A DNA stretch of 63,669 nucleotides, filler included, from Reclinomonas americana ATCC 50394 (taxonomy: Eukaryota): assembly GCA_048213135.1 (NCBI GenBank). It is 12 parts of 12 records of this genome, joined end to end, with 100 filler letters (N's around TTAATTAATTAA, not from the genome) between each part and the next. Parts side by side here need not be neighbours in the genome. Positions count along the whole stretch, not along the records: positions 19,480 to 27,600 come from AFZH01020000.1; 11 more parts are not named here. One strand, 5' to 3'. The notes below the pieces were generated by a model that had not been told where the DNA came from, searched no databases, and worked only from the letters and a program-made list of their open reading frames with translations. Below are positions 4,772 through 63,533 of this stretch, one piece after another (the first letter of the stretch is position 1; the number at the start of each line of letters is the position of its first letter). The position numbers were made by a program, and so were the translations under genes.

Positions 4772-4871
4772 NNNNNNNNNNNNNNNNNNNNNNNNNNNNN
4801 NNNNNNNNNNNNNNNTTAATTAATTAANNNNNNNNNNNNNNNNNNNNNNNNNNNNNNNNNNNNNNNNNNNN
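4772..4871. other. Artificial contig linker (N-run + TTAATTAATTAA + N-run); identical linkers at 6843, 9184, 12556, 14963, 19380, 27601, 32589, 50131, 54045 and 58597
   Basis: Identical 100-nt blocks; the 12-mer places stop codons in all six frames. Confidence 0.98.
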
Positions 4872-7800: not shown

Positions 7801-10800
7801 AATCCCATAAAGAGACCACAAATTTCGTACGACAACTACCGCACCGAGAGTCGACCGCATCCACCAGGCGGAGCGACGAGTACGCGTAGCTGCCCTTGAT
7901 GCGCTCAAAGTCGACTTGGACCAGGCACTCGCCCTCGCCCATGTACAGACGATTCTCCGTGTAGCCGGTCACCACACCGACGCCCAGGTGCGGTGCCGTG
8001 ATGCACTCCACACGCGCACCGATACGGAAGTGCAAGTGCGAGGTTGGGCGGTCGTTGCCACCGTATCCCACCGCATCACTGCCGTACATGCCGGCAAAGC
8101 CACGCGACATGTAGTACTCCATGCGACGCTCCTCTTGGGAGAGTTCGGGACCAGCCTCAGCGGCCACGTTGATGAGGAAGTACGTCACACCGTGATCGCC
8201 GCGAATGCGCACGCGGCGGAACGGTTGAATCACACTCTCCAAGTCTGCGACGGCAATGATGATTGTGTGCGTGTGAGCATCCACACAAAGAAAAGAAATC
8301 GGTGACGACGTCACAGTGGGAAATAAAACAAAACTTCGTGGACGCGCAGTCGGAGCACGGCGCGCAAACTGCAAGTCGGCCAAGTTGGCCACCGGCAACT
8401 CAATCGCTCCCTCGTTGTCCGTGTACGGCGGCGGCAGTGACGTGACAAACTTGAGCGTGCTCATCGGCACGCACAAGTGGCTGGCCTCGGCGTCGACATT
8501 ACCGCAGGCCACAGAGATCTTGCTCTCGCTCTGCTCCTCAATGAGGCGCACGGAGCACACAGTGTCTACAGATCGCGGAGAGTGAGTGAGCATGGCACAA
8601 AAAGGAGGAGCCTCTGTGTAAAACGCAACAGTCGCCAAGCATGGCGGAGAACCCGCTGGCGGTGGTGGTCACGGGCGACGGCGGAATGGTGGAACCAAGC
8701 CCAGTCTCGGCCACATCCATGCTGGACTCGGCGCAGTTGGAAGCCATCAATGCCGTCTGCTGTGCCAGCAGCTGGCTGCCGCTGCCGCTGCCACCGAGGG
8801 TGATGGTCGCGCCTGGGAATGGGCCAGCTGACGCTGTCGGGCCCACCGTAGACAGCACAAGACCGTACCCAGAGGACGAAGACGAAGACGCGATTGACGA
8901 CGGCACGTCGCATGCATCGTCGTACGCATCGCCACTGCCGTGGCCGTAGCTGCCAATGTCACTCGTACCAATGCCGCTGGAGGCATGCTGCGATCCACCC
9001 ATGCGGCTGGCGCGCTCTGCGCCATGGCCGAAGGCGACAGCAGAGTACTGACCTGAGCTGGCCTGTCCACTGCTGTTGTTGAGTGAGGACCGCCGAGCGA
9101 TAAAAGCCTCCAACTCGGCAAAGGATTCCTCGAAAATGGGCGGCAGCGACTCGGACGGACCGAGTACCACCGACGTTGGCGCANNNNNNNNNNNNNNNNN
9201 NNNNNNNNNNNNNNNNNNNNNNNNNNNTTAATTAATTAANNNNNNNNNNNNNNNNNNNNNNNNNNNNNNNNNNNNNNNNNNNNCCTCCTCTCCGCTGCTG
9301 CCCTCGGCAGCCGCCGTCATCGCGGCCACGGCAGCGGCAACAGTCGAAGCATTGGCTGCGGCGGCGGCGTCGGCGGCTGCGGCCTGCGACGACACGTCCA
9401 GCAGTCGGCAAATCATCTGCAGGCCACAGGCGTAGTAGTAGATGGACTGTTGGTTCTTGAGGGCGGTGTTGTAGAGGAACTCGGTGTCGGCGTGCGGCAT
9501 CTTCAAAAAGCGCATAAACTCGCCGACAAAGTGCGCACGACCAGCGTGAGCGCGACCATCGAGCGCGTCGTAGTGGTTGGGAGGCGACGACTGCGGCGTA
9601 TCGAACGGATTCGAGCCGCGATTGCCAGGCGTGGCGACCACATCCAACGACAGGGCGTGCACGGCAAATGTGCTGCGACGTGGGCAGCAATGGTGAGCGA
9701 AGGGTACAACTCGGCACGACAATGCGACAGTGACTCAACTGCGCCGAGTTGATCGAGTTGGAGCGCAACGAGCTGATCGGCGTCTCCTCGTGATCCAAAA
9801 AGTCAAACGACGACGACGCCCGTCGGTTATCGCCATGATTGTGTGTCTTTGGCACCGACTGTTCTCGCGGTGAGTGAGTGAGTGTGTGGACTGCATGCAT
9901 GCAAACCAGCACGACAGTACGCACGTTCTTGAAGGCAAACACCAAGTCGCAGCGATGCAAAAAGTCGACTGCGTACTCGCGCCACAGGTCGCTGATAAAG
10001 ACCTCGCGGCCTGACTCGGTCTTTTGGAACTCGGTGGCCTCCTCGCTGTTCTTGAATTCCTCGTAGGCGCGGTAAATGTTCTGCACAACGCGTCGCCGTC
10101 AGTCTCCATTTTGTGTCTTCTCTCGTCTCGCGCCGTCAGAGAAGAGAGAGCACGCAACGTTTTTCTGGAAGTGCAGCTGGCGGTACACGTTGCGGTGAAC
10201 ATCCATCCAAATGTCGTGCAGCTCGCGCGACACAATCACTTGGTTGTCGGTGAGACCTTGCTCCAGCTGCTCAGCGACGGCATACACCTCCTCGTCGATG
10301 CCGAATGCTTTCAGCACCACTGCCTCGGCGGCCAACATGCAGGCCTCGAAACCCTCGAGCAACGAATTTTGATTGTACAGGTTCTGTGTGCGGCACATGA
10401 AACAAGTCAGCAAGGCAAGACAAATACAAAAGCGATTAGTCTACAGCGAGGCGGACGCAACGGCAGGCAAGTGACGGCGAATCATGAATTCGGCAAACTT
10501 GTCCACTTGCTCGGCACGCCCGAGAGCCATCAGTGTGCTGCGATCGTTGTGGTCCAACACTCCAAAGGCGCGACTGAGCATGCGATGGGCAGTCTGCAAT
10601 CACAACCGCTGTGTGTGAGCACACTGAACTATCTTCGGCACACCACAACCGCAGTTTTGCCACGCAACCATCTTCTCCAGCTGGCGTTGAAGCAGGCCGC
10701 GAATGATCATCTCTCCAGTGACATAGTCGATTGGCTCGCGAGCAGAGAACACGTCGCGCATCGACATGGCAAAGTACGACGGCGAGCCGAGCGGAACCGC

Positions 10801-13800
10801 AGACGACGTGTTCCACGCCACACCGACGCTGCTGGACAAAATGTTGCCACCAAACGGCGGTCCGTTCGACGGCGTCGTGATGGTCAACTGCGACGGCAAC
10901 TGCGCGGCGAGAAGCGTACTCGGCTTCTCCGTGTTGGTGTCTTCCAGGCCACCGGATCCCAACATTCCGCTGAAAAAGTCGACAGCCTGTTTGCGTCGCT
11001 CCTCGTGCAGCTCGTCCACTGCTGCCGGCGAGTCAGCAGCAGAAAAAAGAGAAAGAAGAACAATGTGTGCATCCGCAACGTTCATCGTCTTCGCCGGCCA
11101 TTGACGACGACGCGGGTGGTGGCGACAACAAGGCCGACGCAGGGTTGGAGGTGCCGAGCAACAGCACAGATGGCGCCGACAGTACGCAGCATTCAACCGC
11201 GGTAATGGTGTCGACTGGATTCTCCGTCGCCACAATGCCTTGGCGGGAACGACGCGGAGTCCAACGACGGCGCGGTAGATTGCTGGTAATGTCGCCACCG
11301 GCGCACTGCAGCTTGAAGATGCGCTCGTAAAAGGTCACCAACGGCTGCCCGACGACACTCCAATAGCGCAGAGTTTCTGGCGTCACGTCGCTCGAGTTGG
11401 CGGCATACTGTGCAAGATTGCCGGCCAAGTCGGCCAGTGACGGCACCGTGGCCAGCGAGTACAGCGCGAAACCATCGACCACCGGCGACACAATGCCAAA
11501 CAGGCAAATGGCGTACTGTTTGGCGGGCAGCAAGTTTAGTGCACACTGGTACTAGTTTTTTCGCAACACTGAGCAAAACGAGAGTCGCAACCTCAGTGCT
11601 CGAGCATTGTGCGAGTTCGCGGTCCACCGACAGCAGGTACTGCACGAGGATGGCCGCGTACTCGGAAAGGTTGCCAACAAAGAAGGCGGCAGCGGCCAGC
11701 TCCACCAACTCCTCCAACAACATCTGCTGGAACTCAGTCAGCGATTCCGGATCCTCGGCTTGCAACCGCGCCAGGTGCAGCATGAACGAAAAGGCGGTCG
11801 GATCCTTGGCTGAGCAGGCCACAATGTCCTGCGAGAATGAACACCGTGGTGAGATCATTCACGCACATCCTAATCGACGAGTGATGAAAGAAAAGAGGCG
11901 ACGCACGGTGAACATAATCTTGCGCAGTGTTTGCGGGCTGTTGAGCGCCAAGCGCACGGCCTTGAGCACATCGGCCTTTTCTTGCATTGTTGCAGACTCG
12001 GCGCAAGCAACAGTCAACATTTCCACAAACTTGGCCGGCGTGTACGTCAGCGGGAACAGCGCCAGGCGAGTTTGCTGCATGGACTCATACAGTGCCTGCA
12101 TTGCAACAGTGAGCATCGCCACAATTGCAGCGTGACAAAAGACAGCAGGCAGAGGGACCTTCCACTTGGCACGGCCAGCCAGCAGTGTGTCGAGTGCCTC
12201 GAGTGCCAGCATCAAGTCACCCGACGCATCCTGCATGCCCGAGTCGACATAATCCTCGACAGCTGCAGTCGACGATGCGTTTGTGTTTGCGCTGTCGTCG
12301 CTGAGGAGTCGGCGCACAATCTCCAAGCATTCGCTGCAAATGACCTCAAAGTACACGTCTGTGCGGAGCCAAAAAGGTCAGTCCAGTGTCACCTTCAAGA
12401 CAGAAAGACAAGACAAACAAGAGTATGTGCACAAACCCTCCAGTCCATGTCGCCGACGATAGTCAATCGTGTGCAACAGCAGTGAGGCCACGAACGAGGC
12501 CACGCCAGGAGCGTTGATGAGATTCTACAATACGCATGGGGAGGGTCAGCTTCGTNNNNNNNNNNNNNNNNNNNNNNNNNNNNNNNNNNNNNNNNNNNNT
12601 TAATTAATTAANNNNNNNNNNNNNNNNNNNNNNNNNNNNNNNNNNNNNNNNNNNNGTAAACTTTGAGAACCACAGTCACCAAACCTCTACAGTGCGTGCA
12701 CGCTCCATGGAGAGGCTGTCCCGGTTGATGGTGACAATGTGGCACCGCTGCGTGGTGCAGTGAATCTCCAGCGTCAACTTGCCCAGCTCGTCGAACACGA
12801 TGCGTGTGCGCAGCACTGGACCCACGTCAAAGGCAAACTCCTGCACCGCACAACAGCACGTGTGAGTGTTTCTCCGTGGCATTCAGCTCTGACACGAGAA
12901 CGCAACCGTCGAGGCACTTGGCCGCAGCACAACTCCATCGACGTTTTGCACCGACAGGGTCGGTGTCGGCAACACAAAGGTGCTGATGCGTACACGTCCG
13001 TGCGACGGTGACACCTCAGCGACCACGATGCCGCCAGTGGGCATCGGGGCCCACGACTCCAGTGCATTGTCGTACACGGCAGCACTCTCGGCATTGCTCG
13101 ACGAGTGGCGCCGGTGGGAGTGGTGATGAGAGTGGTGGTGGTGATGGTGGTGCGAATGCTGGTGATACCCAGACATGTCGAGTGCAAACGTGGATTCGGC
13201 TGCGGCTGCGTGCGGCAGGAACGGATTGTGAGGCATCACGTGGCAGGCGACACGCCGACCGGACGATGATGAGGTGGACGACGACGATGATGGAGTGCCA
13301 CTGGTTCCTGTGCTGCTGGAGCTGCGGCGGCTCGGCGGCAACTCCACCACGGCACAGAGACGATTGTCGACCTCCATGAGAGCGAGTGCGCGGCGAGCTG
13401 CAACATGTGCGCGAGTGAGTGTCTTTCACATGCCGATTTCGTGCGATTCACCAGGAAGCAGCGCTACGCACCGGCAAACGGCAACGTAATCGTCTGCACG
13501 CCCTGCCACGACGACTCCTCGCTGACGCGCAGGAGCATGGCACCATCGGCTCCACTGGCCAGGAAATCAACGTGCGCCGGTGAGTCGCCAGCGTGAGCCA
13601 CCAGGCTCTCGGCGAACTCGTCAGGCAACACATGGACGGCTGGCATCACGCACACAAGTAAGTTACGTACACGAGTAAACGCACGGCGGCATTTTGGTGG
13701 GACGCACCAATGGGCACATGCTCCGTCCAGTCCATGTCTTGCAGCGAGTTTGTGGTAAAGTGGTTCACCACCGGGCGAGTGCTGGCGAGCGCGCTGGCGG

Positions 13801-15210
13801 TGCCAAGTCGCGGATCCTCGTCTACCACGCTGGCCAGGGCGTCGTATCGCTTCAGTACCGCTGACTGGCGGCGGTGCTGCAGTGGCTTGCCGCTCTTGGC
13901 CAGACGCATGAGCGACAGAATGGTCTTCATCAGCACCTGCACAGTTGGGGGAAATAAACACACACGCGCGGGAGCACCACAAGAGAGACGCGGCCAGTTG
14001 CAGATGCTCGCTGGCATTACCTCCGGTGCCTGGCCATCTTCGCACAGCTTGAGCGCCAGCCAGATCAACTCCTCGTTCTCGGAGGTGAGCGAGTCGTACA
14101 CGGCGTTGCACATGTCTGCCAGCGGCTCCATGTAGGCCACATTCGGCAGCATCTCAAACAAGGAGTGCACGAGTGGCAGCACGCGTTGCTGGACGACGGG
14201 TGACGGTGGAGGGCTGGCACCGCGCGGCGATGAGCGCTGCGGACGCGCCATGGCTTGCTCTCGGAGGACGGGCTTGACAAAGTTCTCAATGAATCCGCTG
14301 AGGATTCGCGACTGGAGACCCTGCTGCGGCTCGTCGCTACCGCTGGCTCCGGCGGCCGGCGAGGCGGCGGCGGCCAACGACGAGGGTGAAGCGGCGGCCG
14401 CAGCCATATCCACTCCCTCTTCCATGCCGACGGCACCACCGGCCGCAGCCGACAACGACATGGCACTGGCGGCACCGGCTGCTGGACGAACCGCGGTCGG
14501 CGAAGTCACGCTGCCAAACGCTCCAGTGTTGGCATTTCCAGTGGCGGCGCGTGTCTGTGAACACGGAAAGAGAGACGAGAAGAAGAGAGAGTGAGTCAAG
14601 CATGGAAGCAAAGGTTGGGTTGAGGGGTCACACTCTCGCGAAAGAAAAACGCAACAGGAAACAATGCCTCCGCCACCTGCACGTAATGCCGGCGGGCCAG
14701 CACATGAGCGGCGTGGTAGCGGTTCGGGTTTTGCGATGAACCACTGCTGGAGCCGGTTGGTGATGAGTCGCCTCCTGCGCTGCCGGCCTTGTTGGTGGGA
14801 GTCGTCGAGGAGACTGGTGACAAGTGATGAAAGTGCGAGGAGTTGCTGGCGCCGGAGGCGGACGGAGATCCACTGGCACCTGGCTCGTGATGCGAGAGGG
14901 CGGCGTAGGCGGCCGCCGTGACCGTCGATGTCGCTGTCGAGGCAGGCAGCGGCGGCGGCGGCNNNNNNNNNNNNNNNNNNNNNNNNNNNNNNNNNNNNNN
15001 NNNNNNTTAATTAATTAANNNNNNNNNNNNNNNNNNNNNNNNNNNNNNNNNNNNNNNNNNNNCGATGTGGAGGAGAGCAACGAGCTCGCACACAATCGAA
15101 CACACGCGCACAATCACAGACGAGGAACAGAGAGATAAAAAGAGAGAGAGCAACTGTACCTGCGCCAGTGGGGACGACGGCATGCGCCGTGGTCGTGAGG
15201 GATCGTCCAT
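4872..15210 (-). CDS. Very large HECT-type E3 ubiquitin ligase (large-HERC/HECTD-like HECT domain), multi-exon, spanning four linkers; C-terminus missing
   Basis: HECT N-lobe at 4872-5690: RIELRGERAQDAGGPFRESISHMCQDLQS...GQFIVNP...FVFLGFLMGMAV...PLPLDLPKFFFKKL...EARLKEL...AVRQGIAIVLP...ETHICGSPNITVEQLK. Minus-strand exons continue through the upstream contigs. That they form one gene, and the start at 15210, are inferred. Confidence 0.75.
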
Positions 15211-19317: not shown

Positions 19318-19479
19318 GTGAGGCTCCATGAGGTTTCTTTGTCCGTGCACTCGCCCTGACTTCTCTCTCTCTCCTCCCTNNNNNNNNNNNNNNNNNNNNN
19401 NNNNNNNNNNNNNNNNNNNNNNNTTAATTAATTAANNNNNNNNNNNNNNNNNNNNNNNNNNNNNNNNNNNNNNNNNNNN

Positions 19480-22400
19480 ATCCAGCAAGTGGAAGCACGT
19501 GTGTGCCACCGGCACGTGATCGGGAGGCATGCCGGAGCCCTGCACCCGCAGCACACCGTCGCTCGGCAGCCCCGGCTGACCGGTGACGTACTCGAGGAAG
19601 AGGCGCAGTTCGAAATCTGTAAAGTTACTCAGAACCTGACGACACACAGTGGAGTGAGTACTGCGCGTGCAGACGTTGTTGCCGCGGAGTGACGCAACAT
19701 CGATCAGCATTTGCGGCACGGTGCTGTCTTCGGGGAAGCCAGAGAATCGAAGCGAGTCCATCAGCGACTGCGTGTCAACGCGATCGTCGCTGCACAGCAG
19801 GCACATCCACTCGAACGCTCCCATGCCCCGCAGTACGTCTCGGTCAAAGTCCTGCTCCATGCACTCGAACATGCCGAGACGCACAATCTGCACGGCTCGG
19901 TCGCGTCCCTCGCCCAGCAGATACGTACGAATGCGACTGCACACGTACGCCATGCGATTCTGCTCCGTCACGGCGTCGCATTCAGCTGCGCACACGCATG
20001 CAGTCACAATCAGCAATGATGAGCAGACGACATGGAGTGGCACGGCGTACCGACACCCGGCGGCAAGAAGGCATCAGGGATGCCCTCGAATGTCATGCCG
20101 TCGACGCAGTCGACCAGAATGAACCGCAGCGAGCGCACCAGCGTCGGATCCACCGGCTGCAGTGCACGCAACAGCAGTGCACACTCGGTGGCCACGGCCG
20201 TCGTGCCGTGACACAGTCGGCCAACTGCGCACATTTTCCAGGGAGTGTCAACACACAGACCTGTGAGTTTGTTGTGCCTCGCGTTGTGCAACGCAACTCG
20301 GCGACGACTCGGACAGCAGATCCCAAAACACGGGCGCCAGCAGCGGTGAGGGAACTTTGCGATCGTCGGCCAGCGCCTTGGCCAGCGCTCGCCCAAAGGA
20401 GCGCAGGGTGCGCTCGACTTGTGGCCTCAAATGAGCCGACACACTGTGCAGTGGCACCGGCAAGTACACCTCGCTGTCGTCTTCCCGTGTGAATGCTGGC
20501 GACTCGCGACACACGCCGCGGAAGAACTGCACAAACATCTCTGACGTCGGGCCACCTGCATTGTTGGAGTGAGACAACATGGCGTACGGCGGGGGTGGAG
20601 CAAGATCGTCGTGCCACGCGCCTTCATCGATGCCCTCCTCGCCCTGGAACGCGACTCGCGTACGTGCCAGCCACCGACTCGGTTCCATGTCGCCAAAGCG
20701 ACGCACAACTGGGCGGAAGAAGAACGGGTGTCGTTAGTTTTGCATGCTTTAGACACACGACTGAACACACAAACCATCGTCCACCAGCGCCGAGCGCCTG
20801 ATGCGCAGCAACAGTTGCGGAATGTCGCCGGATCCCTCTCGCTGCACACGATCGTACCTGGCCTCTGTGAGTGCCCCGCGGAACAACTGCACTCGCAGTT
20901 CGAGAGCCTCCAGTTGCGGGAATGCGCAGATGAGCTGTGTGCGATTGGCCAAAAAGTATGGATGGCACAAGGCGTCGGCCGCCGGGATTCGTTGGTGCAT
21001 GGGCGCAAACTGCACAGACGACACAGGAATGTGAGGGCGACTGCGAGTGCACCACTTTGGTCACACGTATACACACCAGCGACTGCAGCAGAGCAATCAA
21101 GTGTGGCGAGTCACGACAGGCCGACGCGTCAAACTGTGCCTTGCTTGACACGGGATCCACCATGACGTGCGCGTCGACGCCGGCGTATGCGCGGAACAAC
21201 ATCACCCCAAAGGCCCACATGTCGCGCTGCTCGCAAAAACGGTGAGCATATCTTTCAACGACAGTGTCACGACGCAGTGTACGCACCGACGGCATTGACT
21301 GTCCCTCCCCGAGAATCAACTCTGGCGCCACGTATCCGGCCGTGCCGCGGAAGAGAGCTGGAGGCAACCGCCGAGTAAGAACTCTGCTAGAAGTGAAACA
21401 AGCCATGCAGCTTCAAAATGACCGACCTGTCTGCGTGCCTGTTTGCGTGAGCGCAAAGTCCGAGGCCTTGGCGATATCAAAACTGTGGGGTTACCAGCAG
21501 CAGCAGGAAGCGGATCAGACAGCAGAGCGCTTCAACGAGCGGGAGCTGGCTGGCAATCACGAAACTCGACAATCACTGGTCGTCCGTCAGGCTGCATCAC
21601 CACGTTTTCGAGCTTCAGGTCGGCATGTACCACGTCGCGCTGGTGCAGAGCGTGCAAGCCCTACACAATTTGCACGTGTTCAGCTATGGACAACTTGCAC
21701 GAAAGCCTGTAACGAAGAGCAATTCGCGCACCTGCAGCACTCCGTAAAACACCGCGTGAACCTCGTCGTCACCGCGACGGCCGGCAAGCAGCCAGTCGCG
21801 CAAGTGACATGACCCGAGATACGGCAACCGCACCACCACCGTGCCCTCCTCCTGCACTCATCGCGTTATTTCCTACGGAATGCACGTGCAAGAGCACCAG
21901 CGCTGCGCAACTTCATCCGCGAAAAACACTCCTTCCAGCTTTACAACATTCGGGTGGCGAATGTTGGTCAACACGCTCAGCTCTGTCGCCAGTCACTCGT
22001 GAGAACACACGCAGCACAGAAGGAAAGCAGCGCCTCGTGAGACCTTTGAGCAGTGCGCGCCTCGCGCGTGCCTCTTGCACGTTGAAGAGCTTCAGCACGC
22101 ACACAGTCCCATCATGACGATATCTGCCGACACACCAGCACAAGTCATTTTCCAAGCACACTGCGCACTCCAATGCAGACACACACACACACACACACCT
22201 GGCCTTGTGTACGACGTTGCGTGAGCTGAGGCTCTGCAACACCTCGAAATCCGCCAGTTTGGTGCTGCTGAGGAACAGCGGGCTCTCCTGGAGCACGCGA
22301 GGCAGCCGAGCGGCAAAGGGGTGGCTAGCCGACGCCGACGCATCGCCCGCATCCACTGCGGCCGCACGCAAGGCGAACTCGGGCACCAGTTCCGATGCAT

Positions 22401-25302
22401 TCTCCAGCTCCAGCTGCTTTTGTAGCGAACGTGACAGCTCGGCCTGCGCTTCGGATACTCGCAGTCGTGCGCTGTCCACCTGCCGCTCCAGTTGTTGCAG
22501 CAAGTCTTCGCTGGCTCCATCGCGACGCCGCCGACGCACCAGAATGCGTGCCTCGTCCAGCTCGATTGCCGCGTCCTCCACACGGCGGCGGGCGGCGGCC
22601 ACCTCCTGCAGAATCGTGTCGGCCATGTCGTGGGCGACAATGGCCTCGCGCAGTCGCGCCGTCTGCATGGTGCATTCGCTGCAAGAAGCATACCAAGCAC
22701 CTCAGTGACGACGCTGCACGGGAGAGCGGGGATCATTATTCACGCAATACTCACCCCATCAGCGTCTGCTGCTCCTCGGTCCACCGGCGACGATGCGCGC
22801 GCGAGGTGTGAATCTGCGCCGTAAGTGAGCGAAAGTGCTGAAGGGATTACAAGCGAGAGGGAGGGGTTAGAACACGGCGTGCCTTGAGAATGGCGGCGCG
22901 CAGATCGTCGTGGGTCACTGGGAGAGCGCGAATCGACGCCTCCAGTGTCTGCATTTCATGCTCGATCGCTCGCATGAGTGCCGCAGCACTGCACGTCTCC
23001 GACTCTAGAGACTCGTCGGTTGTCATGGCGCAGTCGCGCAGACCACTGGCGTGTCTGCGTGCCCATTGCTCCAATCGAGTGTGGACGTCGGCCAAATTGA
23101 CTGCGACGGAGGCGTCGTGAGATGATGGTGAGGGTAAGGAAAGGATTAGAGAGAAACGGTACCATTTTGCAGGGCGGACGACGTGGGCGTCGGCGGTCCG
23201 TCGGCATCCTCAAAGCCACTCATGTCCACCTGCGGGAGTACGGTCACCAGCTCCAGGCCTGTGACGCGCGTCTGCAGACAGTCGACGACGTCTTGTAGTG
23301 CGCGCTCGGCGGCCACATATTCCGCCCTCCGTTGCTTGCACGCCTGCATGACTTCGTCGGTCCACGTACCGCATTGTACCACCACTTGCCGCGCGCGCAG
23401 CGACGCTCTTCTTGCGCTCTCCATACGCTCCAGCGAGAGCGCCTGCGCCTTGCGGAGCGCGACGGCGAATTCGTCGTCTGCACCGGCCACCTGTCGCAAG
23501 GGGGAAATTCAGACGCCACTTCCACTCATCAGGTCTCTCGCACAGTCGACGCAACGTCGGGATCGGTAGACAGCAGTCGGAGCAAGTGTGGAATGCGGAA
23601 CCGTCGTAATCGCGCGCGCAGCTCGAGTACGCGTTCCGTGTGTCGCTGCAGGGTCTGCAGACGACGCTGCGACTGCTGCATCGCATGCAGTGCGGTCTCC
23701 AGTGGCGACACATTGGCACGAGCAGAGAGCTGAGAGTCTGTGTCCGCGGTGCGCATGTGTAAGTCACGCCGTCAATGAATATGCGTCTCCGTTTCATGCT
23801 CACCCGGTGAACTTGGTCCCTCCTTTTGTGCCTTGTTGCGATCGAGGTACGGCTGGAACACTCGATCGACATCGCCACCGCACTCGACGGCCACCAGCGA
23901 CTTGTTGCCGCGCACGGCCTCCTCCAGCGCGCTGAGTGCACCAGCAGCGACAAACGGATTCACTGCGGGGGAACCAAAAAAGGCGGTGAGGCAAGAGAGA
24001 AAGGAGTGCAGCGTGACCTGGCCACTAAACTCGACAGATTGAGCGACGTGAGCGACGTGTTGAGGCCGAGGGCACTGGCAATGTGAGCCACTCCACCGGC
24101 CCCAATCTGGTTGCCGCGGAGATTGAGTGTGTGCAGGCCACCATTGTAACTAACGCAACGAGAGAGAGAGAGAGAGTCAAGCCAACGCACTCGGAGCGAC
24201 AAAAAAGAGCGCAAGTACACCAACCGCAATGCTGTGCCCAGCGCCTCCGCACACTTGTCGTTGAGCTGACAAGCGGCCAGTTGCAGCGACTCGAGCGTGT
24301 GATTCGTCTGCAGCGCCTTGGAGAGCGCCAGCACACCGCTGACTCCGATGCCATCCTCCTCTGCGCCACGCACACGAGTCACAACACGAGCGGGTAGTGA
24401 CAGGTGCATACGCAGTGGCTCCACCCACCGACAAGCGAGAGGTGATGCAGCGAGGAGTTTGCTCGCAACGCGTTACCGAGCAACTCCATGCCAGTGGCCG
24501 ACACTGCACATCCTCGCAGAGACAAGGAGCGCATCGTCCGGTTCAGCGACAACGCCACCGCCAGCGCTTCCACGCCCTGATCCACCATATTGTACGACTG
24601 CAACGACAGCGCAGTCAACGTGCAATTCTCACGCAGCGCATCGCCGAGCAGGTCCACTCGCTGAACGCGTCGTCGATTTCCTGCACACACCAAGCTGCCG
24701 GGTGAGAACGCGACAATGCACACAGTCTCTCTCTCTTCTTCCGCGCACACACACCCCACAGTTCCAACGAGCGGAGCACCATGTTCACGCGCAGTGCACT
24801 CGACAGCTGCAGCGTGGCCTGATCACTCAGCAAGTTGCCCACGCCCAGGTTGAGGTGCGTCAGCGAGGTGTTCTCTCGCAGCGCCTTGAGCACCTGCTCC
24901 ACGCCACTATCCATGAAATTGTTGTCTGCATGTGCATGTCAGCACAGTGACACGCAGACACACACACTCTCACACGAAACTTCCGAGTAAGAGCGTGGCA
25001 AGCGACGTCGACTGGCGAATGCTCCGCGCGAGGCACTCGGCGCCACTCTCGCCCAATCGCACTCCGCTGACATTGACGCTTTCCACGCGACACTCGGGTC
25101 GACTGAGCAGCTCACACAGCTGCTCAAACTCGCCGCCCGACACTGCCCGATGCGTCCACTCAATCTGCACGCATGCACAATGAGTGTCGAGTGAGCGCAT
25201 TTTGAGAAGAAAAGCAAGGCGACTTGCCTGTCGCACAGTGCCGCGTGACACCTCCTCCAGTGTGCGCACACACGAGTCGGGCGAGAGCGCGCGTGCGGCC
25301 AT
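19480..25302 (-). CDS. Multidomain protein: RI-like leucine-rich repeats - coiled coil - protein kinase - HECT E3 ligase (last residues lost at linker)
   Basis: LRRs (ALRENTSLTHLNLG, ALQTNHTLESLQL, LHTLNLRGNQIGAGG); kinase motifs (VLKLF, HPNVVKL, HADLKLEN, DFD, GTAGYVAPE, DMWAFG, ALCHPYF); HECT motifs (FQGEEGIDEGGPTSEMF, FLEYVTG, PVAHTCF). Exons join in frame. Confidence 0.85.
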
Positions 25303-25461
25303 TCTATTTTTTTCGATATGATATGACGATTGTCCGGAAAGTTGCACAATCTGTCCGATCACTGGCGGCTCTCACTCTCGGGACGATCAGCGACTCTGCA
25401 TTGTGTGTGTGTGCGAGAGAGTGAGAGAGTGAGTGAGTGTGTGAGTGAGGGGTGTGTGCAG

Positions 25462-27582
25462 ATGCCACGCGTTCGCTTTGTGGTGCGTCGGCAAGTGTAT
25501 TTCGGCGAGTGTGTGGCGGTCATGGGCAGTGTGAGTGCGCTGGGTGCGTGGTCCACTGCAGCTCCGTTGCCGCTCACCTGGGCGCCTGGTGATGTGTGGC
25601 GTGTGGAGTGTGAGGTGAGAGAGAGATCTGTGTCGTCGTCGGAATATCTTTCCTGTTGTTGTCGTCGTGGTTGCTCACATCGAGGCGGTGTGCAGATCAA
25701 CGAGGAGGTGACCGAGTACAAGTACGTGGTGTTGAGAAGACCTCCGGTGGCCGTCGGCGCCAGTGCCAGTGCAGTGGAGGTGCGCGCGTTATTTCTCTGA
25801 CTCATTCTCTCCCTCTGTCGCTGTGCTCACCTTCGCCACCGCCAGCTGCAATGGGAACCCGGTCCCAACCGCCTGCTCCGCCTCGGCTCGGAGACACCGA
25901 ATGCGAGCGGCATTATTGTTGTCAGTGACGACTGGGTGAGCTGCTCTTCTCTTTGCGCGTGTGTGTCGCCACCCCCTTCCATCTGCTGATCCGTGCGTGT
26001 TACAGCATGCGGTGCCGACCAAGGTGGTTTTCGAGGTGCAGAAGCACGTCGAGTATGGCGAGAGCCTGGCCGTGTATGGATCGTCCAAGCGGCTCGGTGA
26101 ATGGAATCTCCTGGCGCCCGTGCGCATGCAGTGGTGCGAAGGTGACGTGTGGCGATCGCCGCCTGTCGAGGTGCGTTGATTCCCTTGCTGCGAGGCGCTG
26201 TATTTGGTTCGAGAACTGAGTGACTGACTGATTGCGATCTTGCAGTTCTCGGCCGAGGAGACCACGTTTGAAATGTCGTACAAGTATGCGGTGGTTCGCA
26301 TTCTGCCCAGTGTCGACAGTACGGCGGTGGATCCGGGTCCGACGTGGGACGTGCGGTGGGAGAACGACGTGAATCGCGTCGTGTTTATCGATCGGTGTGC
26401 CGACATGCCGGGTGCGCGCGATGCGGAGAGTGGTGTGGTGACACTGCGCGACACGTGGCGACCGCACCTGCGACTTGTGCTTGTCGAGTGCCAGGGTCGC
26501 GTGCAGTTTGGCGAGCGACTGGCCCTGGTCGGCTCGTGCGCGACCCTCGGGTCGTGGGACGTGCAGCAATCGGTGCCGATGGAGTGGAACGAGAACGACG
26601 TGTGGACGGTGCGCGTTGCGGTGCCGGCGGGGGCACACTTTTACTTCAAGTTTGTGGTGGTCACCGACATGGAGCTGAATCGCTCGACCAGCAACGGCGT
26701 GACAACTGCCACGGTGAGCGCTGTTGCATGCCACGCGCACGAAGTTTCCTTGTCGCTCACCTTCAAGTTCCCAACAGTGGACGGCGCCGGTCAACGTGCT
26801 GTGGTGGGAGCCGGGTGACAACCACGTGGGCTTCCTCAGCGACGAGGGTGAATTCGGGTGGCACACGTCCTTCCGGCCGTCTACCGAGGCCGAGGAACAG
26901 GAGGCGTGGGCCGTTCACCGACAACACATGCCGCCGCAGTCGCCGCCAATGTCACCGTCGCGGACTCATCGCTCGCCGCACCGCTCGCCATCACGCTCAC
27001 CACCACTGGCACCCGTGCACACAGACGACGGCTCCGGCAGTGGTGGTGGCGGCAGTTCTGGTGTGCCTCCGTCGCTCTCACTCTACAACTCGATGGTGGT
27101 GGCGGCCGCTCTCCGCTCGCACGCCGACGACACGTTGCGTTTGTTTCTCCGGCCTCACTCCCCCACTATTTACTGTGTTGCTTACCAATACATGCAGGCC
27201 GTGCACGTGCTCCCGGTGCCGCGATGGCCAGCACGGCATGCTGATTTTGAGTCCGACGTCCACCACCGCACAACCACCGCACGACTTGTCACCGCAAACA
27301 GCAGCTCGACTGGCCATTCCATCGCTGATGCCCAAGTTCCCCGTGCACGTGCGCTCGTGGGAAGTGCGACCGGCCGCCTCGTCGGCTGTGCGTTTGCGTT
27401 TCGACGTCAGGTGAGCGAGACGCAATCTCCTCCCCTCCCCGTCTCACTCTCCCTCTTCCTCACATCCAACGGCGTGCAGATTAACCCCTCCTCCACTGCC
27501 GCCGACAGAGATTAGTGTAGAAGCAGCAGCAGCAGGGGAGAGTACGGCGATTGCCGCTCCCTTTGTTGTGCACGTCACATAG
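25462..27582 (+). CDS. Protein with three tandem CBM20 starch/glycogen-binding domains and a Ser/Pro-rich tail
   Basis: Three repeats of the CBM20 pattern: FGECVAVMGSVSALGAW...WAPGDVW...EYKYV...WEPGPNR; YGESLAVYGSSKRLGEW...WCEGDVW...YKY...WENDVNR; FGERLALVGSCATLGSW...WNENDVW...FKFV...WEPGDNH. The 3' end is less certain. Confidence 0.85.
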
Positions 27583-27700
27583 TAAAAAAAACCAAGCCGT
27601 NNNNNNNNNNNNNNNNNNNNNNNNNNNNNNNNNNNNNNNNNNNNTTAATTAATTAANNNNNNNNNNNNNNNNNNNNNNNNNNNNNNNNNNNNNNNNNNNN

Positions 27701-30518: not shown

Positions 30519-33500
30519 TTAAGCACGATCAACCTGAAACAAACACACAATCCGTGCGTACCATGTCAGCAGGTGGCAGGTACGACTGCTGCTGCTGCTG
30601 CTGTTGTTGCTGCTCGTGCTCGGCGTGAAGCAACGGCTCGCCTTGAATTTCGGACTGCGTCAGCAGGCGACCATCCGCCAACCCAATGGAAGGCGGCTGT
30701 TGCTGCTGTTGGGCGAACAACATCTCCTCCTCCTCCAAGTCCTCGGCTCCCAACAGCGGCGCGTTCGGTGGTCTGGCCACGTAGGAGTCCTGCGGGCCAA
30801 GGGCAGCACCAGCGGCAGCAGTAGCGCCACCGGCAGCGGCATGCGACCGAGCTGCCAGCGGTACCGCGCCTGGAGACACAGCATCCGGGAACGAGTCGGC
30901 AAACTCAAAATCGTCGAATGAGCCCGAATGCGCGACATCGACATCGGCACCGGCAGCACTGCTCTCCGCTGCTGGGCGCGCTGTTGCACGCTGTTGCTGC
31001 TGAGGCTTGGTTTGCGGAGATGGCATCGGCGACGGTCGCTGCAGCATACGGCTGCCCTCAACCGAAAAGATGACAGGCATTGGCACAAACTGCAACAACA
31101 CCAAGGTCAGCGAGTTGCAGAAGAAGAGGGCAGGGAAGGCTGACGCAAAAACATAGAGACAAACCGGCTGTGCGAATGCTGGTCTTGTGCCACGAACGAC
31201 TTGCGGTTGTGGTGCGGGCGGAGCAGGTGCAGGCGCAGGTGCTGCAGGCGCTTCTACTGGCTGCACAGGTCTCATCGGCACGTGTGGCGCCGGTCTGTTC
31301 ATGCCAACCCGCACTTCAGCCAACGGCAACACCATACTGTCGTCTTGCGGCGGCTGTGCGCGACGAACTGGGCCTGGGCGATCGCCTGGTGACGCGTCGC
31401 CAACGTGACGAGCCTGCAGAACAGGAAAAGGCGTGTCAATGAAAGTAAGAGAAAATACAGGACAGTAAAAGTGCACGAAACCACAGCGAGTCCAACGCCC
31501 TCCTCGGCCATATTGAACGATCCGTGCTGGTCCCATCGCATTCTATGAACGAGGTAAAGGTGAATGAAATAGAAGAATCGGAAGCACGACTTCATCGGTT
31601 GCACATACCCTGGGAAGCGATTGGCCAGTGCCGGTGGTACATAACTCGGGCTCGTGGGTACCACGCCGCTCGCCGTCATCATCATCGATGCGCTCACCGG
31701 CGACAGCATGTCGCGCGGGAACTGCTGTCGCAACTCGAATTCGGCGTCTGGATTCTGCTGCGCAAACGTGCTCAGGCTCTCCATCAACTCCTGGCCGCCA
31801 CTGTTGGCGGGCGGGATCCACTGCGGGTGGTTGGCGAGGAAGTTGATGAACGACTTTTCCATCTTGCCGTGGCGCGAGTGGCTGAGACGGCCGCCGTCGC
31901 CGCCGACTCGAGAACCAAACTGTGTGAATCAGCAGGTGCACAGTTATGAGAAAGGCAAGCATGGCAAAACAAAAATGGACACGGAATCAACGCACTCGCG
32001 GGTTGCCGTGGCGGTGGAAGTTGAAGGTCGAGAAGGAACACACGTAGCCGAGACCCTCCACCTCCACCGAGTTGTCGCGCACAAAGTCGACCATTTTCTC
32101 TAATGTGCGCAACCGCGTCAACCACAGCTCGGCAGCATTTTCAGAAAACAGGCAACTCACCGGCACTGTTGGGCATCGAGAACCAGAAAATGAGCGGCGT
32201 CAACACCACACTAGCCATCTCTTGGATGAACAACTCGACGCGGTAGCGGAAGAGCTCAGTAAACTGACGCAGAACCTGTCAATGCAAGCGAGACAGATGT
32301 GAGGAAGGCAGGAGCAAGAATTATCACAAGAATGCAGTGCCACACACACCTCGTGGCTGCCGGGCTGGAGACGCCACTGCTTCGGCACATAGTGCGTGTA
32401 GCTAATGACCTGCTTCAAGTACAGCTCGGGGAGGAACACAAACGACTCGTCGCCGACAGACTTGCGCAGCGCAGCGAGGCACGTGGCCAAGATCACCAAA
32501 TACCACGCCAGCGGTCGGTCATACAACTGTGCACAGACTCAGTCAGACGACACGAGCGCGATATGCCTGGCCAGAGACAGAGACACACNNNNNNNNNNNN
32601 NNNNNNNNNNNNNNNNNNNNNNNNNNNNNNNNTTAATTAATTAANNNNNNNNNNNNNNNNNNNNNNNNNNNNNNNNNNNNNNNNNNNNACCTCCAACCCC
32701 ATAAACATGGGTTCGTTGATGAGTGCAATGAGAATAAGAACGGCGGCGAGACCGCCGAGAATGAAGAGTGCCGCAGAGGAGATGGTGGACAGCAGGTGAT
32801 CGGGGTACTGGTCGACAAAGTTGCGTGCCGGCCGTGACGACATTTTCATGCGCTGCTCGAACACGTGCGGCAGCTCGTTGAATTCGCGGAACTTCCATCG
32901 CGCCAAGGGCGACCACGTGCGCGCTCCCATGGTGGCCAGCGACGACCGGAATTCCTGCGCCACAAGCTCAATCAGTCTTCCGCGCTCGCCACTCTCTCTC
33001 TCTATCCAATCGCTGCTCTCACCTCGAGGTAGCGGAACAGAAACTCGACAAACAGGTACACGATGATGAAGGGCGCCATCAGCAGGTTGACAAAGCCGAG
33101 CACCACAAATTCGGTCTTCAGCGCGCTGACAATGCCCTCGCGATCACGGCGGGCCAGCGCCTGCCGATCGAGCAACGAGCGCACAATCTTCATGAGATTG
33201 TATTCCAGCGATCGCGTGAGGATGCTGGTGTTGGAGAAGAACGGCAGCGGGATGTGTAAATCGAGCAAGTTCTTGTTGACCAGGCCAATCAAGTAATTCT
33301 GCTGGCGCATGATCCGGCTGGCGATATCTGTCAACGCGGGGGGAGAAGACAGTCAGCACGTGTCACAACACTGACTCCTCCACGCGCCGACTCACCCAGC
33401 GCCGTCTGCTTGCGCTGCAATGTGAGCTGCATTCGCTCCTGCAGCAACTCCAGATTGTGCGCCACCACATGCCACTCGACGCTCTGCACATCGGACTACT

Positions 33501-34471: not shown

Positions 34472-34550
34472 AGTACGCGCGCGCGCAAAGAACGATACGA
34501 AAAACGAACAGAAATAGCTTAATCCGTCGATCGGTCTTTTGCTTTGTGTC

Positions 34551-35561
34551 ATGGAAGACGACGCGTTTGTGAGTCGCCTGGAGTGCGCTGGTGTGGAGGT
34601 GCTGTTGTATCGACCGGGTGTGTTGGTGGCGGTGAACAAACCGGCGGGAATGCTGTCGGTGCCGGGTGGTCGTCGTCATTGCGGCGATTGGCGATCGCGA
34701 CAGGAGCATTGGGCGGCGTGTTTGCAGCTGGAGAGCACGCGACAGCGCGTGTTGTTGTGTGTGGAGGGTGGGGATGGGTTGTGCTGGTGGCAGCGGTGTG
34801 TGGACAAGGTGGTGCGTGAGGCGGTGAATGTGCCGCGGCGTGCTGATAAGTTTGTGGCGAGCTGTGTGCGCGCGTGGAAGCGCGAGTTTGCGGCGGTGGC
34901 GCGGGAGGATGTGGAGCAGGTGGCGCGTGTGGTGTTTGATGTGTGCGATGAGTGCATGGCGATCATGGAGGAGGAGGAGGAAGAAGAGGAAGTGTCGGCA
35001 CTGTCGGTGTTGGAGCTGTGCGGGCGTCATGCACATGCAGTGCATCGGTTGGACATGGAGACGTCGGGTGTGCTGCTCGTGGCACTGGACGCACGTGTGG
35101 CGGCGGTGCTGTGCGAGCAGTTCCGGCGAGATGATTGCGTGCAGAAGACGTATGTGGCGGTGGTGGAGGGCGACGGCGGGTGGGAACACGGCCAGAGTGG
35201 CGTGTGTGAGCAGCCGATATGTGCCGAGCCTGAACGCCGGCCGCGGCAGCAGCTCGATGTGAGCGGCGGCAAACCCGCGGTGACACGGTGGGAAGTGCTG
35301 CAACGCGGCGTCGACAGTGCGACCACTCGGATGCGCCTGCAGCCGATCACGGGTCGAACGCACCAACTGCGCGTGCACATGGCGCTGGCTCTGCGACACC
35401 CTATCGTGGGAGACTCGCTGTATGGTCGAGCATCGGAGCGGTTGTTGCTGCACGCTGAAACGCTGGAGCTGTTTGATGTGCGTGAGGTGGCCAGTGGCTC
35501 CGGATGGGAGGTGGCACACGATGCCCCCCGGCTGCGTCTGGAAGCCGTTTGCCCTTTTTGA
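34551..35561 (+). CDS. RluA-family RNA pseudouridine synthase (RPUSD-like), single exon
   Basis: VNKPAGMLSVPG, catalytic HRLDMETSGVLL, KTYVAVV, GKPAVTRW, LQPITGRTHQLRVHM, HPIVGDSLYG, LLLHAETL. Confidence 0.95.
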   Translation: MEDDAFVSRLECAGVEVLLYRPGVLVAVNKPAGMLSVPGGRRHCGDWRSRQEHWAACLQLESTRQRVLLCVEGGDGLCWWQRCVDKVVREAVNVPRRADKFVASCVRAWKREFAAVAREDVEQVARVVFDVCDECMAIMEEEEEEEEVSALSVLELCGRHAHAVHRLDMETSGVLLVALDARVAAVLCEQFRRDDCVQKTYVAVVEGDGGWEHGQSGVCEQPICAEPERRPRQQLDVSGGKPAVTRWEVLQRGVDSATTRMRLQPITGRTHQLRVHMALALRHPIVGDSLYGRASERLLLHAETLELFDVREVASGSGWEVAHDAPRLRLEAVCPF

Positions 35562-35921: not shown

Positions 35922-38900
35922 ATGTCTGTCTCGTCGGCAATGGCGGCGGCGGCGGCGGCAGGAGCAGCGGCAGCAGCACCGTTCTCGGACGACCCCCAAC
36001 CTCAGCTCACCACGGACAACACGGAGACGGCTGCGCAACAACGCGTCTCGTACATAGAAGCACTCGCAATGATGTGCTATTGTGCTCTCTTTTACGCGTT
36101 GACCGCGCGCGACCAGCTGACGAAGGAAAAATGGCCAAGTTGCGTACCCGCAGATGAGAGAATGATCCTTCGATTTCTACCGAGTCACTGTATCCATATT
36201 TGTGTGTGTTTCTTCCTCTACTGACCCCCTGTCACTCCCAGTGTTTGTGATGAACATGCTGTTGGCACTGGTCAGTGCATTGTCATACTATGCCGTCAGC
36301 GGCGGGACTATGTTTGGAGTCCGTGGCTGGGGTCGATTTTTGACGATGTCGCCAAGTGTGCTGGAGACCAACACGGTGCGGACACGCACTGCGGCTGTGC
36401 GTTCTTCGCCCCTTGATGTACCCATGCACTGTGTGTGTTGTGTAACGTGCAGTCGGTAAACGCTCCGACAATAGCGCGTATCGGGGGCTTGCTCGGCCCG
36501 CTTCTGATGCAGTTCTTTCGACCGTCGCTGAGGTGAAATTTGGTCAACATTGGTGCTTTTCTCCTCACATCACTCACCGTCGTCAAACACTGCTCACATA
36601 GTGTGCACATCATTGGTCATGCACTGCTCGGCTGCACATTCTCTGTCTGGGTGTCCGAGAGAAAGTTTGTTGCGTCTCGGAAACCGATGTGCATGTGCGC
36701 TCTCGTCGACGTCGTCTGTGAAGCTGACGGCCCTTTGCGCACACAGTTGACACTGACGATGATCCTGCACATGATTGTCGGCTACTGGCGTACGCTCGCT
36801 TTGGGGTATTCGTGGGTGAGTACCCTGGCCGCAGTCACGGCGTTCATGGACGTGCTGAGATTCCCGATTTTTTGCTCTTCCACAACAAATAGGATACCGG
36901 CTTGGCCGTCACAATAATTCCACTGATTCTCGGTACCCGTGTGCTGGTGAGTATTCCCCGTCCCTGCCCGTGCAAGTGAGGCAGACTGGAAAAAGAAATC
37001 GGCTGACTTGTCCTGCTGCGTGCGCAGAACACGTACTACGAGACACACGGAATTGTGGCGCACTTGCGGCAAGCGAACCAGATGCTGCAGGAGCTGAACT
37101 CGCGTCTCGAGTGTGCCAACACATTGTTGGACGAGAAGGCCGCAGCACTGCAGGAGGCCATTGAAGACAAGGATCTGTTTCTGAGCAAGGTGAGACTGAG
37201 CGCCGCGAATTAGCAGCAGCACATGTGGTGCGGAAACTCACCCTGTGTTGCAGTGCTCGCACGAATTGCGACAGCCATGCTTCGGCATCATGTCGGCACT
37301 GGAGAGCTACACGTCTCTGTCGAAGCACAGCGATCCTGCAATCGCCGAGGCCATTTCATCGTCGCCCAGCATTGAAAAGATTGCACGATACGATGATTCT
37401 TGTGTTGCGTGGACTGTCTTGTAGGCGTGTGTCTTTCTGGGTCATCCGAGTGTTCTCACTCCATTGTCAACTGTATGCAGGTGCACGACGGACTGCAGGC
37501 AACGCGGACATTGCTGGCTCTGTTGAATGGTCTGTATCTGTGTGCTTGATATGTTCATCGCGCATCTTGCACTCACGTCGTTGATCGTCGGCAGAGCTGT
37601 TGGATCTGATGAAGCAAAAGCGAATGACCATTAATGTGAAACTGGCTCCCGAGTCACTGGTGGAGGTGTTGGCGTCGGGAGTACGTTGTATGAGGCACAT
37701 GGCACAGAGGCAAGTCAACTGAATGCAGCAGCTTGAGTGATTGATTGCAGCTCACGATGAATATGACCTTGTGTGCACAGTGCTGGTCTCGGCCTGTCAC
37801 TGCGAATTGGTCCGATTCTCATGTACTATCACCGACGTGGTGTGCGGACGTGGATGGATCGACTCCGAATCATTCAATGCCTCAGCAACCTGCTCAGCAA
37901 TGCCATCAAGGTTTGTCGTCTCGTGTGTGTTTTTCGTGTCATTAGTTCTGAGACTCACGTGTGAGTGGTAGTTCACCGAGGCTGGTTCAGTGTCTGTGAC
38001 TGCCGACCTGTGCACGCGCACCAAAGCCGATCCAGGGGAAATATCACAGCACGGCATCTGGGGAGGTTGCGTTTGCGCCCACCTCGTCTTGAGGTTGACA
38101 CCAGACTGACGTGGTGTCGCTCCGCAGAACCGGAGTACATGTACTTGCCCATGTATGACATGCAGCAGTTCCTCGTGGCTCCGACACGCTTCGCGTCCGA
38201 GGTACAAGAGCACCCCTCCGAGTACTACGTGCGCGTGTGTGTGGCCGACACAGGTCAGGGAGTGTCGTTAGAGGATGCGACACACTTGCTGGAGCCATTC
38301 TACCAGAGTTCCACCAGTCGAACGCGACATCAGTTCGCCGGCACGGGTCTTGGTCTGACACTGGTGCGCGACATGTGCCGTACGCTGTGGGATGGCGATC
38401 TGTGGTGCGTACTGCGGTGGAGGCGACTTGTGTTCGAGTGCGTCGGGATGTTCACCGACGATGGTTGCAGGTTCGAGACTCAAGCTGGCATCGGATCGCG
38501 GTTCTACTTTTCCTTCCCCTACAAGCCTGCATCATCGTCGCCGTTGCGTTTCTTCTTAGATGTACTTACTGTCTCGTATGTTTCCTTGACAATTGAGAGC
38601 AGCGGTGCCGACGTGGCAGCCACCTCCGAGACACCACAGAATTCCGACGCACAACAGGCCGCCACCGTTGAGACCAAGAAGTCGACAGAGCATGTGACGC
38701 CAGGTGCGCCCGTTCAGGCCCTCCCTGCGACCAGCACGCCGCCACCGCCGGTGCGCCAACGACCACAGCTGTCGTGCGTGATTGTCGATGACAGTCGCGT
38801 GGTGGTCAAGGCACTCGAGCGGCTGTGCGTGTCGCACCCAGTTGAGTGCGCCGTGTAGTGCTTCTGGTGGTTACCTGGTGTAACACAGAAGCTGACTGCG

Positions 38901-50130: not shown

Positions 50131-50285
50131 NNNNNNNNNNNNNNNNNNNNNNNNNNNNNNNNNNNNNNNNNNNNTTAATTAATTAANNNNNNNNNNNNNN
50201 NNNNNNNNNNNNNNNNNNNNNNNNNNNNNNGAGAGAGAGAGAGTGATGTGGCGATGGAGTGACTAATCGTCTTTTGTTGTGCCAG

Positions 50286-53966: not shown

Positions 53967-54144
53967 CGTCGTGTCGTCTCGTTCGTTACGTTACTTACGT
54001 TACGTAGTGTAGTGTGTCGTCGTCGTGTCGGTAGGTGTCGTTCGNNNNNNNNNNNNNNNNNNNNNNNNNNNNNNNNNNNNNNNNNNNNTTAATTAATTAA
54101 NNNNNNNNNNNNNNNNNNNNNNNNNNNNNNNNNNNNNNNNNNNN

Positions 54145-58596: not shown

Positions 58597-58696
58597 NNNN
58601 NNNNNNNNNNNNNNNNNNNNNNNNNNNNNNNNNNNNNNNNTTAATTAATTAANNNNNNNNNNNNNNNNNNNNNNNNNNNNNNNNNNNNNNNNNNNN

Positions 58697-63464: not shown

Positions 63465-63533
63465 CTGCAAGGGAGGGGGAAGGGGGGAGGGACATATTAG
63501 GGAAGGGAAAGGGAAAGGGAGAGAGATGTGAGC

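Follow-up and report, generated by a model that had tools for sequence, protein, structure and literature searches.

We analysed a 63,669-base stretch of DNA from Reclinomonas americana ATCC 50394 (hereafter the window), which consists of 12 contigs laid end to end with 11 artificial joiners. Our subject is a gene on the contig at 19480-27600, in which leucine-rich repeats (LRRs), a long helical stalk, a protein kinase domain and a HECT ubiquitin ligase domain are read as consecutive parts of one protein. The spliced model of this gene comprises 25 exons and 24 introns, starts on the minus strand with an ATG at 25302, breaks off where the contig ends at 19480 and gives 1414 codons free of stops. 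It is quite likely one nuclear gene in a gene-dense, intron-rich eukaryote. We consider it fairly probable that the product is a ligase of the kinase-HECT family, whose characterised member is TKUL of Leishmania, and that it carries a new N-terminal head. The features of the locus, in the order in which the gene is read, are the following.

23898..25164, minus strand: eleven ribonuclease-inhibitor-type LRRs (model residues 26-334, with five introns inside)
23738..23803, minus strand: intron between the LRR part and the helical region (66 nucleotides, GT-AG, GTGAGC...ACACAG)
22261..23813, minus strand: helical, coiled-coil-like region (residues 363-774, about 410 residues, rich in A, R, L and E)
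20953..22260, minus strand: protein-kinase domain (residues 775-1036, nine exons)
22092-22090, minus strand: Lys806 (beta3)
21627-21619, minus strand: His-Ala-Asp899
20680..20952, minus strand: conserved kinase-to-HECT linker (residues 1037-1105, about 70 residues, ...IRRSALVDDVVRRF...)
19480..20679, minus strand: HECT domain (residues 1106-1414, starting with GEEGIDEGG; the last ~27 residues and the C-terminal tail are absent)
19497-19495, minus strand: catalytic Cys1409 in PVAHTCF
19380..19479: contig joiner that ends the gene's contig (N44 + TTAATTAATTAA + N44)

Pfam was run exon by exon, and whole-protein comparisons (HMMER alignments and the family profile) were made with the spliced model. 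At the N-terminus, Pfam LRR_6 (PF13516) scored above its cut-off on two stop-free frames (30.7 bits against 23.4), and the 83-residue LRR exon at 24430-24678 matched ribonuclease inhibitor 3tsr with an E-value of 2.3e-14. The LRRs of LRRC34 and NLRP5/14 as well as NOD2-like chains were also among the PDB matches of this exon. The eleven repeats, which were laid out by eye, are 26-29 residues long and show the tandem arrangement, the LxxLxLxxN/C pattern and the alpha-helical half of the ribonuclease-inhibitor (RI) class. The region that follows gave a heptad score, an ad hoc measure, of 0.205 over residues 363-774, compared with 0.128 +/- 0.025 for 200 shuffles and 0.056 for the kinase-HECT part, and it contains four heptad-like stretches at about residues 378-414, 482-511, 554-600 and 648-724.

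The kinase domain is split over its exons, and single exons scored 23.7 and 16.4 bits, below the Pfam cut-off of 31.7. Pkinase (PF00069) matched the 31-residue catalytic-loop exon with an E-value of 3.7e-5 and the next exon with an E-value of 0.0063, at collinear profile positions. Alignment with the family revealed all of the kinase motifs VLK, ELSVL, HADLKLEN, DFD and YVAPE; the alpha-C Glu lies in KELSVL and the Asn in LKLEN, and DFD is split by the intron at 21565-21483. Downstream, Pfam HECT (PF00632) matched the last exon block with an E-value of 1.8e-13 over profile positions 133-279, and the HECT part also matches E6AP. The N-lobe start, the C-lobe and the catalytic Cys of a HECT domain are all present. 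Only 28 proteins among 1.84 billion representatives matched the exon of the C-lobe at E<=1e-3; because the matches are so few and the best reaches 39% identity, we regard this C-lobe as very divergent. The initial annotation had placed RI-like LRRs, a long coiled coil, a kinase and a HECT domain that retains the catalytic Cys in one gene frame, and the repeats, the coiled-coil character, the kinase and the common frame were borne out by these results. Its HECT claim stood as regards the Cys and the domain match, but the domain is incomplete at the contig end. Its statement that the kinase runs directly into the HECT domain has to be amended, since the conserved linker lies between them.

The assignment to a family is carried by comparison with other proteins. 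Pkinase stood directly before HECT in eight of the ten longest matches to the HECT exon. One database search, made with residues 560-1230 of a Paraphysomonas protein, yielded 26 proteins with both Pkinase and HECT, 16 of them with an N-terminal Kelch domain and none with a domain of the LRR families. Named relatives include the pelagophytes Chrysophaeum and Aureoumbra, the chrysophytes Paraphysomonas and Epipyxis, the kinetoplastid Papus and the brown algae Scytosiphon, Cladosiphon and Nemacystus. A profile of 31 family members matched the spliced model with an E-value of 2.2e-113. Against the family, the model formed a single continuous HMMER domain that begins between residues 642 and 790 and passes through kinase, linker and HECT to the end. 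Homologue P0003 aligned over residues 55-684 of 711 (E 7e-60), and the alignment of P0053 covers model residues 672-1436. Nodes 1-485 of the profile, which hold the Kelch domain and the early stalk, were unmatched, and RI-type LRRs stand in their place; the Kelch propeller, although the commonest N-terminal form, is a feature that varies within the family.

Signatures held in common with the family are RRKWT...PELF before the kinase, VVLKGF, the absence of a Gly-rich loop, DFD/DFE, the linker motif, VTFxGExGxDEGG and AHTCF. The last ~130 residues of the stalk, including the RRRWT...PE motif, align with family members, and the linker does so column for column. The AlphaFold model of homologue P0057 (mean predicted local distance difference test score (pLDDT) 78.7, predicted template modelling score (pTM) 0.50) begins with three long helices, followed by a kinase fold in which an insert between beta1 and beta2 is disordered, a linker helix at 444-461 and a HECT fold. 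The part of this homologue that corresponds to the stalk is predicted as long helices, and its HECT fold matches the structures of HUWE1, WWP2 and ITCH with template modelling (TM) scores of up to 0.80, normalised by target length. On these alignments, the gene belongs to the protist kinase-HECT (TKUL-like) family. Sequence comparison also strongly supports the view that the end of the stalk, the kinase, the linker and the HECT domain form one conserved unit in many protists. Because that block is conserved as a unit, the helical region, kinase and HECT domain are best assigned to one gene.

Two family members were also looked up in the ESM Atlas, and no LRR form of kinase-HECT protein was found in these look-ups. 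The cluster nearest to them is an 847-residue 'MAPKKK' cluster of 71 members, in which Pkinase is present in 100% and HECT in 90%. Its recorded taxa are mostly Streptophyta, which is unexpected for an otherwise protist family and could reflect either contamination or a real plant-lineage branch.

The kinase-HECT core itself is already known. Such a fusion had been reported from Naegleria and Ectocarpus in 2013, in a paper whose main text leaves LRRs unmentioned (Grau-Bove et al., PMC3673628), and the ochrophyte proteins with Kelch, kinase and HECT domains probably correspond to what the same paper calls 'GL-Bikonta' HECTs and describes as having 'unusual protein kinase domains'. As described in secondary passages, TKUL/HECT12 of Leishmania is a dual kinase/HECT ligase in which autophosphorylation is required for ligase activity, and both activities matter in amastigotes. 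One such passage attributes an integrated regulatory kinase domain to TKUL and cites Fokkens et al. 2025 for it (PMC13196369). The initial annotation had taken the kinase-HECT fusion to be unrecognised, which these reports overturn. Its remark that no LRR-kinase-HECT protein has been described agrees with our results; LRRs were found in none of the 26 family members, and literature searches returned neither an LRR-kinase-HECT protein nor a further named kinase-HECT fusion. The LRR head is thus new among the members compared, the N-terminus of TKUL lying outside the comparison. The study of Fokkens et al. (Mol Cell 85:3711) reportedly concerns TKUL/HECT12 of Leishmania mexicana (LmxM.34.4000).

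Like TKUL, the protein described here has its kinase immediately before the HECT domain in one polypeptide, and a kinetoplastid member, P0032 of Papus, aligns with it over kinase, linker and HECT (E 7e-48). The protein described here has eleven RI-type LRRs at its N-terminus; the comparison with TKUL extends over the kinase and HECT parts. The closest solved kinase structure is PDB entry 9gmp, which we presume to be the kinase domain of TKUL. This entry was the best PDB match of the 31-residue catalytic-loop exon (E 2.8e-4) and the best solved match of the kinase part of P0003 (E 1e-22 versus 4e-18 for the next), and it matched P0032 with an E-value of 2e-58 versus 4.5e-25 for the next. Nothing in the PDB matched the segment from beta1 to beta3 when it was searched together with its intron (22045-22290). 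The kinase is of the family type, having no Gly-rich loop, an HxD...N catalytic loop, a DF[DEG] motif and 9gmp as its closest structure, with one departure, a Leu for a Pro; 9gmp has DFG where the protein here has DFD.

The ochrophyte proteins, exemplified by KAJ8610544.1 of Chrysophaeum taylorii and A0A7S3JMR1 of Aureoumbra lagunensis and met again in Cladosiphon, Nemacystus, Scytosiphon and Epipyxis, align collinearly with our model and share its order of modules: a repeat domain, a long helical region (coiled coil), a kinase without a G-loop, a conserved linker and a HECT domain. In contrast to the LRR solenoid found here, they carry a Kelch propeller, and identity in the HECT C-lobe is only 30-39%. 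A pelagophyte-like subgroup has an insertion in the HECT domain in common with our protein; however, the kinase catalytic residues are lost in that subgroup and kept here. The canonical HECTs (HUWE1, E6AP and the NEDD4 family) share the fold and the catalytic Cys, and the family HECT matches HUWE1 with an E-value of 4e-24. They differ in that our protein lacks modules of the C2/WW, RCC1, ankyrin or ARM kinds, carries a kinase upstream of the HECT domain and is very divergent in sequence. An LRR binding head beside a Cys-dependent ligase or a kinase is also known from the bacterial IpaH/SspH NEL ligases, the F-box/LRR receptors and the ROCO/LRRK kinases. No NEL, F-box or Roc-COR module occurs here, and these systems are analogies only. 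In F-box proteins, LRR or Kelch domains are described as alternative substrate receptors (PMC4327156). Membership in ROCO/LRRK was rejected, as there was no Roc or COR match in Pfam and no P-loop, and the 410 residues that separate the LRRs from the kinase have a helical, heptad-like character.

For the gene model, GT/GC...AG pairs that leave the reading frame open were enumerated wherever the frame changes and were then assembled. Intron lengths are 45-83 nucleotides with a median of 66. Twenty of the 24 introns are obligatory, as the unspliced frame shifts or hits a stop, and the other four are in frame and stop-free. Stepwise removal of the three in-frame introns in the kinase-HECT part raised the family-profile score from 331.9 to 352.9, 384.1 and 408.1 bits. 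The segment at 19698-19636 is also skipped by database matches, which cover that exon in two stretches. The N-terminus may be 21-24 residues longer, because the remaining in-frame intron, at 25227-25165, is without support from the relatives' profile. Exons and in-frame introns are listed below.

Exons 1-5, minus strand: 25302-25228, 25164-24981, 24925-24755, 24680-24429, 24360-24225
Exons 6-10, minus strand: 24149-24031, 23962-23804, 23737-23544, 23490-23163, 23100-22874
Exons 11-15, minus strand: 22813-22755, 22678-22199, 22123-22044, 21982-21912, 21851-21732
Exons 16-20, minus strand: 21660-21566, 21482-21427, 21381-21287, 21226-21077, 21009-20775
Exons 21-25, minus strand: 20708-20622, 20555-20298, 20224-20057, 19985-19699, 19635-19480
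25227-25165, minus strand: in-frame stop-free intron, 63 nucleotides, GC-AG, less certain
21286-21227, minus strand: in-frame stop-free intron, 60 nucleotides, GT-AG
20621-20556, minus strand: in-frame stop-free intron, 66 nucleotides, GC-AG
19698-19636, minus strand: in-frame stop-free intron, 63 nucleotides, GT-AG

Automatic gene callers would probably take the four in-frame introns for coding sequence inserted into the kinase and HECT domains. Together with the contig break, these four introns, of which two are GC-AG, can mislead automatic annotation of the gene. A search with the largest exon among longer database proteins, made for the gene's own annotated protein, gave no match. The 3' end of the gene is absent, since 19480 is the contig end and lies five codons past the catalytic Cys, and homologues run ~27 residues further; the missing C-terminus is a matter of assembly, not of biology. 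A pseudogene was rejected on the count of 0 stops in 1414 codons. All coding signal of the locus is on the minus strand, with different modules in different stop-free frames, and a gene on the opposite strand was likewise rejected, as none of seven plus-strand frames inside the locus had a Pfam match.

A number of observations weigh against the view that this is a kinase-HECT ligase with an LRR head. The join of the LRRs to the rest is read from predicted splicing, and since LRRs occur in no other kinase-HECT member compared, it is unconfirmed by a second organism. Upstream of about residue 640, the alignment of the stalk with the family is of low confidence. The assembly does not include the C-terminal tail of the HECT domain. 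The kinase of the spliced model has no GxGxxG Gly-rich loop, while it keeps the beta3 Lys, the alpha-C Glu, the catalytic Asp and Asn and the Asp of DFD, and its catalytic loop has Leu in LKLEN at a position occupied by Pro in all 31 aligned members. Of 31 relatives, 7 lack the Asp of the catalytic loop, which indicates that catalysis is not universal in the family. Finally, 9gmp is only probably TKUL, its sequence being kinetoplastid-like and its PDB title naming no organism, and the switch mechanism of TKUL is drawn from two secondary passages.

The first of these points bears on whether the locus holds one gene or two. The connection of the LRR part to the downstream modules hinges on a single ordinary 66-nucleotide intron at the exon 7/exon 8 boundary (23804/23737). 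If this intron (23803-23738) is retained, the frame runs into a stop at 23774-23772, and only ~16 nucleotides separate that stop from the next in-frame ATG. A short LRR-only protein could thus end at this stop and a separate helical-kinase-HECT gene start from the internal ATG, in which case the join would be an artefact of our reading. In line with such an arrangement, some kinase-HECT members have no N-terminal repeat domain (P0003 with 711 residues and P0057 with 842), LRRs are met in 0/26 Pkinase-HECT proteins, and the join between exons 7 and 8 is predicted from genomic sequence. However, a terminator and a promoter would not fit into a gap of ~16 nucleotides, the segment in question matches the other 23 introns in size and ends, and relatives usually have a repeat domain and a long helical region before the kinase (a Kelch domain in 16 of 26). 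We therefore find the two-gene arrangement doubtful. Because the parts share a strand, are joined by a typical intron and leave no room for separate transcription signals, and because a repeat domain and stalk normally precede the kinase in the family, the LRR and kinase-HECT parts are, as far as the sequence can tell, quite likely a single gene. The LRR part takes up the interval as far as a divergent neighbour gene, and the two ATGs, at 25302 and 25462, are 160 bp apart. This spacing suggests that the LRR part is the true N-terminus and that the genome is compact.

The peculiarities of the kinase could also mean that it is a non-catalytic scaffold (a pseudokinase), which would leave a plain HECT ligase whose substrate receptor is the LRR domain. 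Consistent with this, a canonical Gly-rich loop is found in none of the 31 aligned members, the HxD Asp is lost in seven relatives that all keep the HECT Cys, the DFx Asp is lost in 6 of 31, and the Leu in the catalytic loop of our protein replaces a Pro that is invariant in the family. Nevertheless, Lys806, the alpha-C Glu, Asp899, the Asn and DFD are all kept here, and autophosphorylation is reported, in the passages cited above, for the characterised relative TKUL; a pseudokinase is accordingly quite unlikely. The initial annotation proposed a self-contained module resembling an intracellular immune or surveillance receptor of a phagotrophic protist. Such an innate-immune receptor, with LRRs that sense a foreign or danger molecule and signal through the kinase to HECT ubiquitination, found no support and is very improbable. 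In its favour, NLRs use RI-type LRRs as their sensor modules, the PDB matches include chains of NLRP5/14 and of the NOD2-like kind, and TKUL, as summarised in those passages, sets a precedent for a kinase that gates a ligase and makes a ligand-gated version mechanistically possible. Against it, neither a module of the NACHT/NB-ARC, death-fold or TIR type nor a Walker A motif is present, RI-type LRRs occur in many non-immune proteins, the best LRR matches include ribonuclease inhibitor and axonemal LRRC34-type proteins so that non-immune matches are as good, and a tblastn search of the window with the spliced model (E<=1e-3) found no second copy of the gene and hence no paralogue there. Membership in NLR/STAND was rejected on the same grounds, NACHT/NB-ARC being unmatched in Pfam on all fragments and Walker A being absent from the model.

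Returning to a kinase-HECT ligase with an LRR head, we predict that the HECT domain has the effector role, in which ubiquitin moves from an E2 enzyme through a thioester on Cys1409 to a target. The adjacent kinase would switch the ligase on its own polypeptide, acting mainly in cis, by analogy with what secondary passages report for TKUL. The LRR domain may serve as a head that binds a target or ligand, the role that the Kelch propeller would have in the ochrophyte relatives, and the helical stalk could space or pair molecules. One can speculate further that binding of a ligand to the LRRs triggers autophosphorylation of the kinase via a paired stalk and so turns on the HECT domain, as a ligand-gated version of the TKUL switch, but we hold this to be unlikely. 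If true, it would make the protein a device for sensing, phosphorylation and ubiquitination in one polypeptide, with lineage-specific swapping of sensor heads (LRR here and Kelch in ochrophytes).

Kinase-HECT ligases form a protist-wide family in which only one member has been studied, its built-in kinase switching the ligase. The gene described here suggests that the front end of the family is modular, with an LRR solenoid in place of the usual Kelch propeller and the stalk-kinase-linker-HECT core intact. If the head selects targets or ligands, a comparison of LRR, Kelch and head-less members could reveal how input is coupled to the kinase switch.

The rest of the window has to be read with its construction in mind. 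Each joiner consists of N44 + TTAATTAATTAA + N44 and carries stops in all six frames. Because the window is a chain of joined contigs, neighbourhood across joiners is meaningless and genes at contig ends are cut short. The G+C content is about 55-62%. The joiners lie at the following positions.

4772-4871, 6843-6942, 9184-9283, 12556-12655, 14963-15062 and 19380-19479: artificial joiners in the first part of the window
27601-27700, 32589-32688, 50131-50230, 54045-54144 and 58597-58696: artificial joiners in the remainder

The divergent neighbour on the same contig is a plus-strand gene at 25462-27512 with at least three CBM20 starch-binding domains, found in open reading frames (ORFs) at 25327-25797, 25940-26179 and 26228-26815. 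On another contig, a second HECT fragment lies on the minus strand at 5193-5987 (Pfam E 1.3e-7). This fragment was unmatched by the kinase-HECT family profile and is thus of a different HECT class. Two plus-strand ORFs of one contig, at 37965-38855 and 46496-47086, contain HATPase_c (a histidine-kinase-type ATPase domain) and possibly represent two sensor histidine kinase genes or one duplicated gene. Other contigs carry ordinary-looking amino-acid transporter fragments at 2338-4033 (minus strand) and an equally ordinary-looking pseudouridine synthase ORF at 34518-35558 (plus strand, Pfam E 2.3e-30). A gene for a GH20 beta-hexosaminidase lies at 61102-63496 on the minus strand, and the best named relative of its GH20 exon, with 58% identity, is from the jakobid Andalucia godoyi, so that the protein collection searched holds no closely related species.

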